A stretch of 56,685 nt of DNA from Candidatus Omnitrophota bacterium. Lineage in GTDB: Bacteria > Omnitrophota > Gorgyraeia > 1-14-0-20-64-10. Made by a program: the position numbers and the translations under genes. How positions within the stretch are numbered: position 1 is the first letter of the stretch; each line of letters begins with the position of its first letter. Shown here piece after piece: positions 14,458 through 20,460 of the stretch. The stretch spans positions 1 through 56,685 of the forward strand of contig JAMWCF010000003.1 in NCBI GenBank assembly GCA_023818695.1, written 5' to 3'. The notes under the pieces were generated by a model. That model was not told the DNA's origin and made no database searches. It saw only the letters and a list, made by a program, of their open reading frames with translations.

Positions 14458-15943
14458 TCGAGCCGACCCCCGAGAGCTTGCTTTTCTTCAGAATATCCCG
14501 CGCGACGTGCCGGTCGTCGAACGGAATCACCTTGTCCCCTATCTTCTGGCCGGTCTCATGGCCTTTGCCGGCGATCAGCACCAGCCAGCCGGCATCGGCC
14601 GACTCGATCGCCTTTCGGATCGCCTCCCTTCTGTCCAAAATCGTTTCCCAGGGGGTCGAAGAACCCCACAGCCCCTGCTCGATCTCTTTGGCGATCCGGG
14701 CCGGATCTTCGCTGCGGGGATTATCCGAGGTAACAATCACCCTGTCGGCCAGCTCCGAAGCGACCTTCCCCATCCGGGGCCTCTTGGTCCGGTCCCGGTC
14801 GCCGCCGCAGCCGAAAACCAGCAGGACCTTCTTCGGGGTGACCGCCTTCACGTTGGCCAGGACCTGGAAAAGGGCATCGTCGGTGTGGGCGTAATCCACG
14901 AAAACAGGGAAAGGCCCTCCCTCATCCACCCTCTCCAGCCGACCCGGAACGCCGGAAAAAGATTCCACCGCCGGGATCACTTTCGAAAGAGGCGTGCCGG
15001 TCCCCATGACGGCGCCGAGAGAGGCCAGCAGGTTCTGAATGTTGTGGCGTCCGACCAGCTTCCATCGCACCGGGAAAGATCCCTCCGGCGTCTGGACTTC
15101 GCAGGTGGTCCCGTCCAGCCGGCAGACGATCTTCGAAGCGGCCAGGTCCGCCTCCTGCCGCAGACTGTAGCGGATCACCCGTCCGCGAGTGACCCAGCGG
15201 ATCCTTTCCCATACCGGATCGTCCCCGTTGATCACCGCCGCGGCCTGCGGCTCCAGCGCTTCGAAGAGGCGCAGCTTGGCCTTGAAATAATCCTCCCATG
15301 TCTCGTGATAATCCAGGTGCTCGGATGTGATATTCGTGAAAACGCCGGCTTTCCAGGAGATCCCGTCGGTCCGGCGCTGGTGGAGAGCGTGCGAGGAAAC
15401 CTCCATCACGCAGGCCTTCAGACCGGCCTGAAGCATCTCGTACAGCATCGATTGAATCGTCACGGCGCCGGGGGTCGTGTTGACCGATTCCTTCATGACC
15501 GGTCCAATCTGGTAATGGATGGTCCCGATCAGTCCGCAGTGGACGCCGGCCGCTTCCAGGAGGTACCGCGTCAGCCACGAAACCGTCGTTTTCCCGTTGG
15601 TGCCGGTCACACCGACCACAGCCATTTTGTCGGATGGGTTCCCGTAAAAGGAGGAGGCCACAGGGCCCAAAAGCGGCTGGGTGGCCGGAACCCGGATGAC
15701 GACCATACCGCCGGGGGCTTGGGCCTCCCTGTCGACCAAAACGGCGCGGGCTCCCTTCGCCGCCGCCTGTTCGATGAACCGGTGACCGTCGGTTTTCGTC
15801 CCGCCGACCGCCACGAACAGGGCCCCTTCGCGCACCTGCCTGGAATCATCCGTGACCTGCGTGACTGTCAGCCCGGCATGAACTCCCGCCTCGATGCCGA
15901 CGCCGCTCAGCAACTCTCCGAGCGCAACGGCCGGCCTATTCAT
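14450..15943 (-). CDS. murE: UDP-MurNAc-dipeptide--meso-DAP ligase
   Basis: TGTNGKTT, MEVSSH, DYAHT, DNPR (meso-DAP-type specificity motif), AGKGHE. Confidence 0.97.
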   Translation of the reverse strand: MNRPAVALGELLSGVGIEAGVHAGLTVTQVTDDSRQVREGALFVAVGGTKTDGHRFIEQAAAKGARAVLVDREAQAPGGMVVIRVPATQPLLGPVASSFYGNPSDKMAVVGVTGTNGKTTVSWLTRYLLEAAGVHCGLIGTIHYQIGPVMKESVNTTPGAVTIQSMLYEMLQAGLKACVMEVSSHALHQRRTDGISWKAGVFTNITSEHLDYHETWEDYFKAKLRLFEALEPQAAAVINGDDPVWERIRWVTRGRVIRYSLRQEADLAASKIVCRLDGTTCEVQTPEGSFPVRWKLVGRHNIQNLLASLGAVMGTGTPLSKVIPAVESFSGVPGRLERVDEGGPFPVFVDYAHTDDALFQVLANVKAVTPKKVLLVFGCGGDRDRTKRPRMGKVASELADRVIVTSDNPRSEDPARIAKEIEQGLWGSSTPWETILDRREAIRKAIESADAGWLVLIAGKGHETGQKIGDKVIPFDDRHVARDILKKSKLSGVGSNA

Positions 15944-17654
15944 CCGATCTCGCCATCATGAAATGCTGGCTCTGATAAGGAACCTGGAGATAGCCCAGCG
16001 TATCAGCCGCCACCTTCTTGAAAACCGGAGCGGCCACCACGCCGCCGTAATAGACCGGCCGGGGCTCATCCAGCACCACCACGATCGTCAGTCTCGGTTT
16101 TTCCACCGGCACAAAACCGATAAAGGAAGCCATGAATTTGGAATGGGAATACCCGCCCGTTGGTTCGATCTTTTGCGCGGTCCCGGTTTTACCGGCCGAC
16201 CGGTATCCTGGAACGGCCGCCATCTTGCCGGTCCCTTCCTCCACGACCCCGGCCAAAATCTCCTTCAATTCAGCTGCCACAGCCGATGGGATGACCCTCC
16301 GGACCGCCTCCGGCCGGCTGCTGTGGACCAGTGCGCCGGAAGGGTCCCGGATTTCCTTAATAATATACGGCTTCATCAGCACCCCTCCGTTGGCCACCAC
16401 GGAGATCGCCTGGGCCAACTGCATCGCGGTAACCGTCACCTCCTGCCCCATCGGGATGGCGGTGATGGAAGTCTTTGACCATTCCATCGGCGTTTTCGCG
16501 ATCCCGGCCACCTCCCCCGGCAGGCCCACACCGGTCGGCATACCGAACCCGAAGGCCTTGATCCCCTGATAAAGAGAAGCAGGCCCCAGCCGCATCGCCA
16601 CCTTGGCCGTCCCGATATTGCTGGAATTCGTGATCACCTGCCGGAATGTCAGCCATCCGTGCGGCATATGGTCATGAAGGATGTGTCCCCCGGGAATCGG
16701 GAACTCCCCGTTTTCGCAGAAAAACCGGTCCGTCGGCCGAACCACCCCCTTGCCAAGCGCGGTGGCGGCCGTTATCACTTTGAAGACGGAGCCGGGCTCG
16801 AACATGTCGGTCACGGCCCGGTTGCGCCGGTGATCCGCGTCGGCCTTGGAAAAAAGGTTCGGGTCGAAGGTGGGGCGGTTGGCGAGAGCGAGAACCTCCC
16901 CCGTGAACGGATCCATCACCACCACGCATCCTCCCTTGGCGTTTCGTTCTTCGAAAGCCCGCTCCAGTTCTTGTTCCGCGAAGAACTGGATGGTGGAGTC
17001 GACCGTCAGCACCAGATGGAGCCCGTCCCTGGGAGCCACCGCCGGCGCCTCCCAGGCCCCGACCGACCTTCTGCGGGCATCCCGCGCCATCCACCGCCAG
17101 CCGGGCTCTCCTCTCAAGATCTGGTTATAAGCCAGCTCCAATCCTTCCAACCCCACGGTATCCATATCGGTGCAGCCGATCACGTGGCTGGCGAGGTAGC
17201 CCTGCGGATAAACGCGCCGGGGTTCCATCACCAGGTCCACGCCCGGCAGTCTCATCCGGCGGATCAGCGAGGCGGTCTGGTTGGGAATCCGCCTGGCCAG
17301 CCAGACGAAGCCCCGCTCTTTATTGGAGAGCTTCGCCAGAAGTTCATCGACCGGCTGGTTTAAAACCGGGGCCAGGCGCCGGGCGATCCTCTGCGGGTCC
17401 TTGACATGCCTGGGATTGGCGAAAACGGAGGTCAGGCGAATGGAGACGGCCAGCGGCTTCCCGTTCCTGTCCAGAATATCCCCCCGTACCGGGAGGAGCT
17501 CCAGCATCTGGAAATGCTGCCGCCTGGCGATAGTCAGCCAATGGTCGGGGTGGAGAACCTGAAGCCAGAACAAACGGCCCCATAGGAGGCAGGTGATCAT
17601 GAGAAATCCCATGACCACGAAAAACAGGCGGGTTTTCTGGGCCGTGGTCAACAC
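15936..17654 (-). CDS. ftsI: Class B penicillin-binding protein (PBP3)
   Basis: RGDILDRNG, GSVFK (SxxK), SSN, KTGT; likely GTG/TTG start near 17654, exact start uncertain. Confidence 0.93.
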   Translation of the reverse strand: MLTTAQKTRLFFVVMGFLMITCLLWGRLFWLQVLHPDHWLTIARRQHFQMLELLPVRGDILDRNGKPLAVSIRLTSVFANPRHVKDPQRIARRLAPVLNQPVDELLAKLSNKERGFVWLARRIPNQTASLIRRMRLPGVDLVMEPRRVYPQGYLASHVIGCTDMDTVGLEGLELAYNQILRGEPGWRWMARDARRRSVGAWEAPAVAPRDGLHLVLTVDSTIQFFAEQELERAFEERNAKGGCVVVMDPFTGEVLALANRPTFDPNLFSKADADHRRNRAVTDMFEPGSVFKVITAATALGKGVVRPTDRFFCENGEFPIPGGHILHDHMPHGWLTFRQVITNSSNIGTAKVAMRLGPASLYQGIKAFGFGMPTGVGLPGEVAGIAKTPMEWSKTSITAIPMGQEVTVTAMQLAQAISVVANGGVLMKPYIIKEIRDPSGALVHSSRPEAVRRVIPSAVAAELKEILAGVVEEGTGKMAAVPGYRSAGKTGTAQKIEPTGGYSHSKFMASFIGFVPVEKPRLTIVVVLDEPRPVYYGGVVAAPVFKKVAADTLGYLQVPYQSQHFMMARSDE

Positions 17655-17698
17655 GTTGAAAAACCAAAGATCCTTTTTTCCGCAAAAGAACCGAGAAG

Positions 17699-18094
17699 CT
17701 ACTCTTCGTGCGCCGGCTTCGCCTGTGCCTGCCGGTTGATTCCCAAGATACTCGTCGCCGCTTTCCTGGCCAACTGAAGCCACATCGGCCGTCCGGATGC
17801 CTGGGCTCTCTGCGTGGAAACAGGGCTTTGAATGGCTTCAGCGCGCAAAACTTCGATCTGTTGTGGCGGGTTGAGTTGAATGTCCCTGCGCTCCAGCCGC
17901 TTGCTCAAGATGACGGGGGATCGGAGCGTTAGAACATTGTAATGGAGCACCCTGTGCTGGTCAAGGAGCTCGTCCTTGAGCTGTCGCAGGCGCTCGACCC
18001 GGTAGCCATCCTCCACCAGCATCACCCGTTGCTGAACGTATCCCAGACAAAACACAGTTGTCACCGTCAAAACTGAAAAGAAGGAGCGGATCAT
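17699..18094 (-). CDS. ftsL: Cell division protein FtsL-like
   Basis: TM plus coiled coil (GYRVERL...L.SP..L) between rsmH and ftsI. Confidence 0.8.
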   Translation of the reverse strand: MIRSFFSVLTVTTVFCLGYVQQRVMLVEDGYRVERLRQLKDELLDQHRVLHYNVLTLRSPVILSKRLERRDIQLNPPQQIEVLRAEAIQSPVSTQRAQASGRPMWLQLARKAATSILGINRQAQAKPAHEE

Positions 18095-18984
18095 GGGGCG
18101 GTCCCTGACCTTTCGGCGATCCGCAGGTTCGCCGACCTGGCCCTGGAATTCCGGGCCACTTCCGCCTCGGCGGGAACCACCGGCCTGGCGGTGATCATTT
18201 TCAACTGGCCGGCCCTTGTCCGGTCTCTGAAAACGTTCCTCACGATACGGTGCTCCAGCGAGTGATAGGACAGCACGGCGATGCGCCCGCCCTCCCGGAG
18301 ATGATCGATCGCCTGGTTCAATCCGGACGGCAGAAGCTCCAGCTCTTTATTGACGGCGATCCGAATCGCCTGAAAGGAACGGGTCGCCGGATTGATCCTT
18401 CCCCGGCGGGCGGTGGGCGGAACGGCCTTTCGGATTGTTTCCGCCAGCACCCCGGTCGTGGCAAACGGCCGCTCTTTGACGATCGCCCTGGCGATGCGGC
18501 CGGCCCACCGCTCCTGGCCGTACAACCTCAACAGTTCTTCCAGATCCCTGGCTGAAATCCGGTTGACCAGCTCGGCCGCCGAAAAACCGCTGTGGGGATC
18601 CATCCGCATGTCCAGAGGGCCGTCCGCCTTGAAGCTGAAACCCCTCTGCGGCCGGTCCAGCTGCAAAGAGGAAACCCCCAGGTCGAACAAAACGGCGTCG
18701 ACCTTCCCCACCTTCAGCCGGTTGAGAAGTTCCGAAATCTTTCCAAAATCCGAATGAATCAGCGTCATCCGCCCACCATACTTTTGAAGCCGTTTCTCCG
18801 CCGCTTCCAGCGCCTCTTTGTCCCGGTCGATGCCGATCAACCGTCCGTCAGGACCAGCTGACTCTAAAAGGGCTTGCGCGTGCCCGCCCAAACCGATGGT
18901 TGCGTCAAGAACAACGCCGCCAGGGCGAACTGCCAGGCCCGATACGACTTCATGAAGCAAAACCGGTTTATGAACGATCTCCAC
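18091..18984 (-). CDS. rsmH: 16S rRNA m4C1402 methyltransferase
   Basis: HKPVLL, DATIGLGGH, DLGVSSLQLD, NSRARSA. Confidence 0.97.
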   Translation of the reverse strand: MEIVHKPVLLHEVVSGLAVRPGGVVLDATIGLGGHAQALLESAGPDGRLIGIDRDKEALEAAEKRLQKYGGRMTLIHSDFGKISELLNRLKVGKVDAVLFDLGVSSLQLDRPQRGFSFKADGPLDMRMDPHSGFSAAELVNRISARDLEELLRLYGQERWAGRIARAIVKERPFATTGVLAETIRKAVPPTARRGRINPATRSFQAIRIAVNKELELLPSGLNQAIDHLREGGRIAVLSYHSLEHRIVRNVFRDRTRAGQLKMITARPVVPAEAEVARNSRARSANLRIAERSGTAP

Positions 18985-19013
18985 ACGGCTCCCTTACCTC
19001 CTCAAGCGCGCTC

Positions 19014-19451
19014 TTAGCCGTCGATGAGCTTTTCCGCGATCTCTTCATAGGACGGCTTGAACTGCTCGTAGAACTTCTGCCACGCCTCCTTGTCCCAAAC
19101 CTCGATCCGGTTGGAAACCCCCACCAGCGTGACGTCCCTCTTTATCCCCGCGTAATCCTTCAGGTACTGGGGGATCAGAATTCGGCCCTGCTTGTCGAAG
19201 CTTAATTCCGCCGCTCCGGAAAAATAAAAGCGGTTGAACTGCCTCGCTTCCTGTTTCGTGAAGGAGAGAGAGCGGAAGCGGTTCTCCTGCGCCTTCCACT
19301 CATCTTCCGGAAAGAGGAAAAGGCACTTGTCCAGCCCCCTGGTCACCACCAGGTGCTCGACGAAGTGCTCCTTCATCGCCTCACGAAATCGCGAGGGGAT
19401 GATCAGCCGTCCCTTCCGGTCGATCGTATGTTCGTGCTCTCCGTAGAACAT
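19014..19451 (-). CDS. mraZ: Division/cell-wall cluster repressor MraZ
   Basis: IDRKGR and DKQGRI (two DXXXR motifs); strong SD GAGGAG. Confidence 0.97.
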   Translation of the reverse strand: MFYGEHEHTIDRKGRLIIPSRFREAMKEHFVEHLVVTRGLDKCLFLFPEDEWKAQENRFRSLSFTKQEARQFNRFYFSGAAELSFDKQGRILIPQYLKDYAGIKRDVTLVGVSNRIEVWDKEAWQKFYEQFKPSYEEIAEKLIDG

Positions 19452-19459
19452 CTCTCCTC

Positions 19460-19513
19460 AAAAAACCAGAGGGGCAGTCATTCCTGGTTGTGTATTCGGC
19501 GACTGCCCCTCTG
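19460..19513 (-). terminator. Terminator-like hairpin immediately upstream of the mraZ ribosome-binding site
   Basis: Perfect 13-bp stem CAGAGGGGCAGTC/GACTGCCCCTCTG, 21-nt loop, followed by GTTTTTT on the minus strand. Confidence 0.6.
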
Positions 19514-19521
19514 TTCATAAG

Positions 19522-19632
19522 GGTTGTGGATGCTTTATCAGGCACGATCGGTCATCCCGAATCGTCCCTTGTTGTTGCCTTTCCCCCGAAGGGGGCTCCC
19601 CGATAAAGGCAAACCCGACGGCATCCACAACC
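19522..19632 (-). ncRNA. Candidate structured cis-regulatory RNA (or MITE) in the dcw leader
   Basis: Perfect 12-bp closing stem GGTTGTGGATGC/GCATCCACAACC enclosing a TTGCCTTT/AAAGGCAA arm with a CCCCC-UUCG-GGGGG tip and an ACGAT.CGG/CCG.ATCGT arm. Confidence 0.55.
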
Positions 19633-19650
19633 AAGCTCTTTGGAATAATC

Positions 19651-19676
19651 TCTACTTTCCTCCACTTTGCTCCACA
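19651..19676 (-). promoter_or_regulatory. MraZ binding direct repeats
   Basis: GTGGAGCAAA-GTGGAGGAAA-GTAGA, three units at 10-nt period just after the predicted transcription start. Confidence 0.8.
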
Positions 19677-19685
19677 CAGTGACAA

Positions 19686-19714
19686 AATATACAATGCATA
19701 TGGGATGGTGTCAA
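19686..19714 (-). promoter_or_regulatory. Sigma70 promoter of the dcw operon
   Basis: TTGACA-N17-TATATT. Confidence 0.8.
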
Positions 19715-19836
19715 GCAAAAATGGAGGAAAATTTTTATATCACAAGATGTTGCGATGATTTTCGGCGGCGGCTACAAGGGATTGCGGAAAACGCGGAAAA
19801 GAGGAATAATCAGGAAGAAAAAAGAATACCCTTGGA

Positions 19837-20364
19837 CTACGGCAAGATATTGGAGAACATGCTCGAGCCCTTGCGGGCCGCGAAACGGCGGGCCAACTGG
19901 CGCAGAGACCTCTGGAACTGCTGCTGCTGGGTCCGGAAACTCATGAACTCCGCCCCCACGCCGAGGGAATAGGTGCCGGACCAGATCACCTCCTGGGCGG
20001 CCGGGTCATGCAGCTGCACATGGACGACGGCCCCCTGGGCGTCATCCACCCCTCCGGTGAAAACGGCGTCTGCCTCATACTTTCGGGCGATCTCATCGAT
20101 ACTGGGAGAAACGGTTTCCGTCAAGGGATCTTCCATCGGAACCTCCACCACCTCGACCACTTTTGTCTGCCGCAGCTCTTGGGCGAAAAGCTGCGTCATT
20201 ACCTGCCGGCGGACGGGGCTCTCGAAGGTCAAACGAAACGGCATCACCGCCACCCGCTGAATCGCTCTCCATTGGGCATTCTTGCTGGCGTAATAGGTCG
20301 CCGACGTGCACCCGGAAAGCGACAGGAGCGCTGCCAGAAGCAGAACAACAGGACGAATCCGCAC
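19837..20364 (-). CDS. Lipoprotein, TolB-N/LpoB/DUF799-like fold
   Basis: Lipobox LSGC; RVAVMPF; ARKYEADAVFTG; GTG start after AGGAGGGTGATC. Confidence 0.7.
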   Translation of the reverse strand: MRIRPVVLLLAALLSLSGCTSATYYASKNAQWRAIQRVAVMPFRLTFESPVRRQVMTQLFAQELRQTKVVEVVEVPMEDPLTETVSPSIDEIARKYEADAVFTGGVDDAQGAVVHVQLHDPAAQEVIWSGTYSLGVGAEFMSFRTQQQQFQRSLRQLARRFAARKGSSMFSNILP

Positions 20365-20460
20365 TTGAACGATCACCCTCCTGTTTTCGGCCATTATACG
20401 GCAAGCGTGCATCGAATGCATCCGATTTTACGGTGACGCGCCCTTCCCGCGCCTTTCCCG

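Follow-up and report, generated by a model that had tools for sequence, protein, structure and literature searches.

In Escherichia coli, Bacillus subtilis and Mycoplasma, the promoter of the operon for cell division and the cell wall (dcw) is followed by MraZ-binding repeats, the Pmra/MraZ operator. Control of dcw output beyond this operator is little understood, and the sole RNA layer that has been worked out is the UpsM/StsR system of the Rhodobacteraceae. In Rhodobacter (Cereibacter) sphaeroides, dcw transcripts begin with a 268-nt leader that contains a Rho-independent terminator. Termination there gives rise to UpsM, an abundant 206-nt small RNA (sRNA), and approximately one in 100 transcripts reads through into mraZ (PMC5089854; PMC8266604). 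Processing of UpsM depends on Hfq, RNase E and StsR, a second sRNA; StsR and RNase E act on the UpsM leader, and UpsM itself acts in trans on the ftsW and mraY mRNAs (PMC5089854; PMC8266604). The layout was described as exclusive to Rhodobacteraceae, and a riboswitch-like refolding was suspected, which is not conserved (PMC5089854; PMC8266604). The mraW motif (RF01746) is a structured cis-regulatory candidate in Actinomycetales (PMC2864571). Here, we describe a folded leader RNA located between the MraZ operator and mraZ in a Candidatus Omnitrophota bacterium (contig JAMWCF010000003.1, positions 1 to 56,685; this whole 56,685-nt stretch is called the window). The RNA is an uncatalogued, lineage-specific leader element of the dcw operon. 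We assign a probability of roughly 0.6 to the reading that it is cis-acting and works as a transcription attenuator.

The leader begins with a domain closed by stem P1, which encloses a P2 hairpin bearing an invariant loop and an optional apical hairpin P2a, as well as an optional hairpin P3. In the window, the domain is followed by a terminator-like hairpin, a U tract, and the Shine-Dalgarno (SD) sequence of mraZ (Table 1). This layout resembles that of UpsM in three respects. A long structured leader separates the sole promoter, which is a predicted one in Omnitrophota, from mraZ; several hairpins at the 5' end, enclosed by a stem of approximately 11 bp, precede an intrinsic terminator, again a predicted one in Omnitrophota, shortly before mraZ; and termination gives a small RNA while read-through feeds the dcw operon, as we propose for Omnitrophota. 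The option of a standalone sRNA with read-through, raised in the original prediction from the window sequence, thus matches the closest known system. The Omnitrophota leader differs from UpsM in belonging to another phylum, in a transcript that contains the MraZ boxes, in having only one or two hairpins inside P1, and in the absence of a separate terminator from three families. The covariance model R1, built on the P1/P2/P2a domain and run with filters off against four Rhodobacteraceae mraZ loci, reached at best 12 bits (E 0.26) on a bare palindrome, and no Rfam family covers these four loci. Judged by its predicted layout, the Omnitrophota leader is a non-homologous analogue of UpsM that stands outside the UpsM family. 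We filed it as UpsM-like in its working and not as a member, because the logic is the same and homology is not detectable.

The mraW motif is likewise a structured RNA candidate at the start of the dcw cluster, but it has a different structure, occurs in different taxa, and gives no match to the leader at E ≤ 10. The Pmra/MraZ operator shares with the locus a promoter followed by phased GTGG repeats. That operator is DNA, whereas the leader element is additional folded RNA between the operator and the start codon, approximately 180 nt long in the window.

The 229-nt leader of the window has a minimum free energy of -94.4 kcal/mol, as compared with -69.6 ± 4.9 kcal/mol for 200 dinucleotide shuffles (z = -5.03), none of which was as good. 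The features named in the original prediction, which are a leader of approximately 230 nt, a closing stem, a UUCG arm, a second arm, a hairpin and U6, are all present with base accuracy. Rfam 15 was searched with both strands of the leader at E ≤ 10 using permissive filters, and returned chance matches only, to microRNA, small nucleolar RNA and frameshift models; the frameshift-site model matched the GGGGCAGUC hairpin. The orthologous leader of genome G003, searched on both strands at the same threshold, likewise gave no real family. At E ≤ 10 the leader matched none of the c-di-GMP-I/II, c-di-AMP, glmS, T-box, 6S, signal recognition particle (SRP) and mraW (RF01746) models, in agreement with the earlier failure to fit it to the c-di-AMP, glmS, T-box, SRP, 6S or mraW pattern. 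The claim that the RNA is undescribed is thus borne out. The element is also conserved and structured, is always ahead of mraZ and is accompanied by a terminator-like hairpin. A leader peptide was rejected, as the sole open reading frame (ORF) across the leader (19515-19718) begins upstream of the inferred start site and the insertions and deletions in P3 are not multiples of three.

The original prediction depended on the presence of the leader in close relatives. A BLAST search of 60 relatives recovered the leader from 19 of the 20 members of the window genome's own family (f1), from the two genomes of its sister family (f2) and, as a weak match, from a single genome that belongs to a further family. 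R1 detected the domain in 38 of the 401 genomes of the class, with exactly one match in each, in families f1 (19 of 20), f2, f21 (14 genomes) and f54 (3 genomes). A 401-genome sample of the phylum added just one member, a divergent one from family f45 (24 bits). Metagenome contigs, scanned for motif words and then with R1, contributed at least 17 further distinct copies. The R1 matches amount to at least 54 strong ones (48 distinct) and one weak and divergent, from five Omnitrophota families and metagenomes. When 185,579 species genomes were scanned with a 16-mer, most of the matches were due to chance, as expected from the word length, and the loci positive with the covariance model (CM) were confined to Omnitrophota. 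Minimal forms of the motif are 77 nt long.

All copies that were checked are preceded by the promoter CTTGACA-17-TAnAnT and phased GTGG boxes, and mraZ starts 28-135 nt downstream (55 nt in f45). In most other Omnitrophota, which have no leader, the mraZ ATG is positioned approximately 5-15 nt after the MraZ boxes. Therefore, the element is a lineage-specific insertion of approximately 100-200 nt that separates the start codon from the operator and has its own function. A mobile or repeated element was rejected on account of the single R1 match per positive genome and of the window's own assembly, which holds only the leader copy. Four copies (L122 in G001, L117 in G008, and the metagenomic L424 and L414) carry an extra 50-75-nt insert with a strong hairpin between the leader terminator and the mraZ start.

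Covariation was counted in an alignment of 54 sequences with 48 distinct rows. Standard pairs occupy 97.2% of 1200 cells, as opposed to 48-57% in controls whose 3' partners were shifted by 1-3 columns. The observed pairing was reached by 0 of 500 column shuffles, a control that can be exceeded merely by sequence relatedness. Compensatory changes are found at five pairs, including GC, UA, CG and UG at P1 positions and a change from CG to UA at two pairs of P2a. G.U pairs are common (for example, in 15, 10 and 26 sequences at three pairs) and would become C.A mismatches on the opposite strand, and R1 scores 57-121 bits on the sense strand and at most 24 bits on the antisense strand. Thus, the folded strand is that of mraZ. 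The same G.U and antisense R1 evidence, together with the lack of a CM match, led to the rejection of two other readings, a functional RNA encoded by the opposite strand and a degenerate c-di-GMP-I riboswitch.

Apart from its A/G position, the loop RUCGGGGAG does not vary among the 54 strong matches, with the single exception of G020/L021 (GGGGAA). Conservation also exceeds the needs of a helix in the GCC/GGC pairs of P2 and in P1, whose eight outer pairs vary little or not at all among these 54 matches. Together with the loop, these pairs point to sequence-specific recognition. P2a and P3 are modular, being present or absent and variable in sequence. The P2a loops of relatives are of the UNCG or GNRA type. 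P3 stays a hairpin despite its differing sequences (29 distinct members, median z = -1.9) and is missing in five lineages (G015, G009, G019, G011 and G020). In f45, the outer part of P1 differs in sequence yet pairs (UAUGGAUGCGCCC / GGGCGCAUCCAUA), P2a is absent, and the conserved UGUCGGGG forms the loop of a plain GCCUU/GAGGC hairpin.

A fold that has no regulatory role, acting as a passive 5' stabiliser or insulator or surviving by descent as an inverted c-di-GMP-I riboswitch fragment, is very improbable. The members are closely related, so much of the conservation could be inheritance, and the antisense strand contains 22-28 nt resembling the 5' half of c-di-GMP-I with the P2 tip deleted. 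However, across at least 25 genera and five families, conservation of the loop and P1 surpasses that of the promoter spacer, of the flanks and of the synonymous sites of mraZ, and the helices stay paired through compensatory changes. Furthermore, a terminator between a promoter and an essential operon would be costly unless used.

A GC-rich hairpin positioned 7-12 nt after P1 and followed by 3-6 U is present in all 21 leaders of f1 and f2. The base and top of its stem covary (AGAGGGG/CCCCUCU, GGAGGGG/CCCCUCC, GUAGGGG/CCCCUGC), and both f2 genomes have hairpin stems of different sequence. The window hairpin has the GC-rich stem, G and U6 of an intrinsic terminator and is predicted to be one, and on the opposite strand there is no U run after the hairpin. 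A terminator scanner calls the orthologous hairpin of G005 (13 pairs, 4-nt loop) and made no call on the window hairpin, since the 21-nt loop of the latter exceeds the scanner's limit of 8. Families f21, f54 and f45 lack a second hairpin; instead, P1 runs directly into a U-rich tract (UUUAAUUUCUUU, AUUUUAUUUU, or U6 in f45), and U accounts for 6-10 of the 12 nt that come immediately after P1. The common denominator across the families is a stably folded domain, then a U-rich stop signal, before mraZ.

The element is thus a single-copy RNA, conserved in sequence and structure on the mraZ strand, strictly positioned from operator to mraZ, and furnished with a hairpin and U tract. We hypothesize that it functions as follows. 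Transcription would start at the MraZ-controlled promoter, the first approximately 35 nt of the transcript being the MraZ boxes. The compact domain would then fold, with P1 closing the P2 hairpin that displays the invariant loop URUCGGGGAG, plus the optional P3. RNA polymerase would next meet an intrinsic terminator, formed by the separate hairpin and U run in f1, f2 and the window, and by P1 and the U-rich tract in f21, f54 and f45. Many transcripts would end at this terminator as a leader RNA of approximately 215 nt, and the remaining ones would continue into mraZ-rsmH-ftsL-ftsI and the genes that follow. The most likely docking site of a trans-acting factor, which could be a protein, a small molecule or an RNA, is the invariant loop together with the outer part of P1, which is nearly invariant, and the docked factor would set the fraction of read-through. 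In this way, the leader probably limits the transcripts that reach the division genes. Termination itself, its incompleteness and its modulation by a factor are inferred from sequence.

Several points weigh against attenuation. The covariation is modest and half of the pairs never vary, which we attribute to the close relationship of the sequences and the youth of the family. The U tracts of several members are short or interrupted (3-4 U), and termination may be weak or leaky there. In f21, f54 and f45, the branched 75-110-nt "loop" closed by P1 would make an atypical terminator. The start site and the 3' ends are sequence predictions. No conserved alternative pairing connects the domain with the terminator, and the attenuation may therefore be constitutive rather than regulated.

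The original prediction envisaged an attenuator or riboswitch that switches between competing pairings. Of this proposal, the conserved terminator-like hairpin stands. In the window genome, UGGUUGUG (19633-19626) can indeed pair with CACAACCA, located in the loop of the terminator hairpin (19492-19485), and UUUAUCGG can pair with CCUGAUAAA (19542-19534). Both pairings are absent from every relative. As the pairings are confined to the window genome, P1 lies clear of the terminator and no conserved antiterminator was found, the description of the leader as switch-like is not supported. A conserved antiterminator or other alternative pairing was sought in the full-length alignment and none was found. 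The linker after P1 is no better as an anti-SD sequence than shuffled linkers, its duplex with the SD region having a mean of -7.0 kcal/mol as compared with -6.5 kcal/mol. A pairing of the GGGGAGCC bulge or P2a with the 3' arm of the terminator, which by eye forms 8 bp with one bulge in f1, is lost in both f2 genomes and was rejected.

These results bear on the possibility that the domain is the aptamer of a new class of metabolite- or ion-sensing riboswitch, responding for example to a cell-envelope precursor or a nucleotide signal. The ligand would stabilise the fold of P1 and the junction and thereby alter the efficiency of termination. Invariant nucleotides limited to the loop and junctions, helices that either covary or are present in some members only, a strict link with one gene, a terminator downstream and the lack of a matching known class would all suit a riboswitch. 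The leader has the aptamer-like covarying helices and the invariant loop of a riboswitch, but not its mutually exclusive conserved pairings: the switch pairings of the original prediction are not conserved, and no conserved antiterminator or SD-sequestering alternative was found. P1, with 12 bp, a GC-rich sequence and eight nearly invariant outer pairs, does not overlap the terminator and is too stable for an obvious ligand-gated helix. In addition, a narrow distribution with a single copy in each genome is more usual for leaders that depend on a protein or an RNA. We consider a riboswitch possible, if unlikely.

A single-copy, clade-restricted element immediately upstream of mraZ-rsmH could also be the operator of a protein of the operon or of division, such as RsmH, which is an RNA-binding methyltransferase, or MraZ. 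It would then provide autogenous feedback at the RNA level, as the leaders of ribosomal-protein operons do, and the invariant loop and sequence-invariant helix suggest sequence-specific recognition of double-stranded RNA. This explanation is doubtful, however, as by eye there is no convincing likeness to the 16S rRNA region modified by RsmH, MraZ is known only as a DNA binder, and no candidate protein co-varies with the presence of the motif in the analysed data. Mimicry of rRNA for RsmH and a boxA-like reading of UGCCUUUAUCGG were rejected, the resemblance by eye being too weak for both.

BLAST matches to leader positions 101-125 elsewhere in f1 genomes are, when the opposite strand is read, c-di-GMP-I-GGC riboswitches (RF03167, 67-78 bits). 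The leader segment GUCGGGUUUGCCUUUAUCGGGGAG, which covers J1/2, the 5' strand of P2 and the bulge (window 19620-19596, minus strand), exactly complements CUCCCCGAUAAAGGCAAACCCGAC, the 5' edge of the riboswitch. The complement spans 21-24 of 26 nt and is found in some riboswitches only (L268, L269, L270, L273, L347 and other loci); in 4 of 10 f1 genomes, additional loci carry exact 15-mers. Approximately 17 nt of the shared stretch (CGAUAAAGGCAAACCCG) are the consensus of the local riboswitch copies, and the CUCCCC flank is present in a minority of them. The leader of f45 has G at one variable position, against C in its four riboswitch-like sites. A scan of the window for the complement of the invariant 15-mer (≤ 3 mismatches) gave five matches as compared with 2.6 expected, the exact one being the leader itself.

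The leader and the c-di-GMP-I-GGC riboswitch (RF03167, in a clan with RF01051) have in common the word AAAGGCAA on the sense strand and a 17-24-nt stretch of the leader antisense strand that is identical to the riboswitch 5' edge (CUCCCCGAUAAAGGCAAACCCG). However, neither leader strand scores with RF01051 or RF03167 at E ≤ 10, whereas true copies in the same genomes reach 57-78 bits. The leader elements are not collinear with those of the riboswitch and lack the GGGACGCAAAG half and the P3/tetraloop-receptor. Judged by its G.U pairs, the folded strand of the leader is antisense to the shared stretch.

Another possibility is that the terminated leader is mainly an UpsM-like trans-acting sRNA made from the mraZ promoter, with read-through merely supplying the operon. 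Its single-stranded J1/2 and GGGGAG loop would pair with other RNAs. The order of promoter, structured RNA and terminator is like that of UpsM, which acts in trans on the ftsW and mraY mRNAs (PMC8266604). The f1/f2 stretch GGGUUUGCCUUUAUCGGGGAG perfectly complements the 5' edge that some c-di-GMP-I-GGC riboswitches of the same genomes possess, and the leader (G) and riboswitch copies (C) of f45 both carry the other allele at the variable position. Nevertheless, most f21 genomes keep the loop while having no such riboswitch, and no complementary site above chance is present in the dcw operon of the window. The shared stretch is largely (CGAUAAAGGCAAACC) plain riboswitch consensus, with the CUCCCC flank in the minority of copies mentioned above, and in f21 and f54 no separate terminator delimits an sRNA. 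We regard a predominantly trans-acting role as quite unlikely.

Complementarity past the 15-mer is longest in f1, f2 and f45, and shortest in f21 and f54. The number of c-di-GMP-I-GGC copies per genome is mostly 3-14 in f1 (with just one copy, a weak one, in G008), 1 and 9 in the two f2 genomes, 9 in f45, and 0-1 in f21 and f54. This trend extends over only four or five independent lineages and could be due to chance or to descent from an inverted riboswitch fragment. The retention of the loop in f21, which lacks the riboswitches, and the single weak copy of one f1 genome argue against a meaningful link. It is a highly speculative idea that the terminated mraZ leader of f1 and f2, and perhaps of f45, is a trans-acting "anti-riboswitch" RNA that pairs with a subset of c-di-GMP-I riboswitches. 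In such a duplex, GUCGGGUUU-GCCUUU-AUCGGGGAG may pair with CUCCCCGAU-AAAGGC-AAACCCGAC, and the targeted edge may comprise the flank, J1/2, which forms the pocket, and the P2 5' strand. If true, pairing would override the c-di-GMP sensing of pilin, sigma-factor and small-protein operons, following the activity of the division-operon promoter. In that case, no earlier sRNA would be known that acts on a riboswitch aptamer class, and the leader would link MraZ control with c-di-GMP signalling.

Attenuation, which we prefer, and a riboswitch, a trans-acting sRNA, a protein operator and a passive remnant are not mutually exclusive. In ultra-small uncultured bacteria of an unrelated phylum, a conserved folded RNA and a predicted stop signal have independently come to separate mraZ from the MraZ operator. 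This suggests that leader attenuation, perhaps with leader-derived small RNAs, is a recurrent solution for the control of division genes. As a compact motif with an invariant 9-nt loop and clear optional modules, the domain is a tractable candidate for ligand or protein fishing and a possible new Rfam family.

Table 1 Features of the dcw leader and neighbouring genes in the window
Feature	Position	Strand	Details
Three-helix RNA domain	19633-19521	minus	113 nt; CM R1 102.6 bits, E 3e-21
P1 closing stem	19632-19621 with 19533-19522	minus	12 bp; GGUUGUGGAUGC with GCAUCCACAACC
J1/2	19620-19611	minus	CGUCGGGUUU
UUCG-capped arm	19610-19577	minus	P2 + bulge + P2a
P2	19610-19605 with 19582-19577	minus	GCCUUU with AAAGGC
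Single-stranded bulge/loop in P2	19604-19596	minus	9 nt; AUCGGGGAG; family consensus RUCGGGGAG
P2a hairpin	19595-19583	minus	CCCCC-UUC(G)-GGGGG; optional; absent in family f45
P3 hairpin (second arm)	19568-19541	minus	variable sequence; absent in several lineages
Linker	19521-19514	minus	8 nt
Terminator-like hairpin	19513-19467	minus	CAGAGGGGCAGUC...GACUGCCCCUCUG; 13-bp stem, 21-nt loop
U6 tract	19465-19460	minus	one G between stem and U6
Shine-Dalgarno sequence	19459-19452	minus	GAGGAGAG; outside hairpin
-35 element	19714-19709	minus	TTGACA; part of sigma-70-type promoter 19714-19686
-10 element	19691-19686	minus	TATATT; 17-nt spacer from -35; 11/12 consensus matches
MraZ operator	19675-19670, 19665-19660, 19655-19650	minus	GTGGAG, GTGGAG, GTAGAG; 10-nt period; inside transcribed region
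mraZ	19014-19451	minus	ATG at 19451; Pfam MraZ 5e-43
rsmH (MraW)	18091-18984	minus	downstream of mraZ; Pfam MraW methylase 7e-105
Small ORF in ftsL position	17699-18094	minus	ORF table
ftsI (class B penicillin-binding protein) gene	15936-17783	minus	Pfam transpeptidase 3e-81

The locus is the head of a dcw operon, since the ORFs downstream of the leader encode MraZ, RsmH/MraW and a class B penicillin-binding protein. The predicted promoter is the sole promoter-like site within 19000-20100 and is positioned 235 nt before the mraZ ATG; transcription would start near 19679. The CTTGACA sequence and the T/A positions of the -10 element are unchanged across 22 relatives, and the MraZ boxes are kept in all relatives of the window genome. 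The promoter and phased GTGG boxes constitute the ordinary first layer of control, found in every Omnitrophota examined. The mraZ start codon is apparently GTG in three relatives (L114/L115 of G018/G006, and L119 of G012). In G016 (L116) it is apparently CTG, with an in-frame TGA three codons upstream and no in-frame ATG, GTG or TTG.

Directly upstream of the mraZ promoter is a 194-residue ORF (19837-20421, minus strand) that has no Pfam match. The intergenic word (C)AACATCTTGTG (approximately 19741-19752 in the window, minus strand) is kept in several f1 genomes (L111, L114, L118 and L016). It is located approximately 30-45 nt upstream of the -35 hexamer and may be a further regulatory site. 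In several other Omnitrophota, a sequence that by eye looks like the 3' end of RNase P RNA (..ACAGAACCCGGCUUACAG..) is found with a terminator just upstream of the mraZ promoter; the putative RNase P RNA 3' ends of L046, L049, L051 and L058 are approximately 100-250 nt upstream of mraZ. An rnpB-mraZ neighbourhood has been tabulated for Pelagibacter (PMC2704228).

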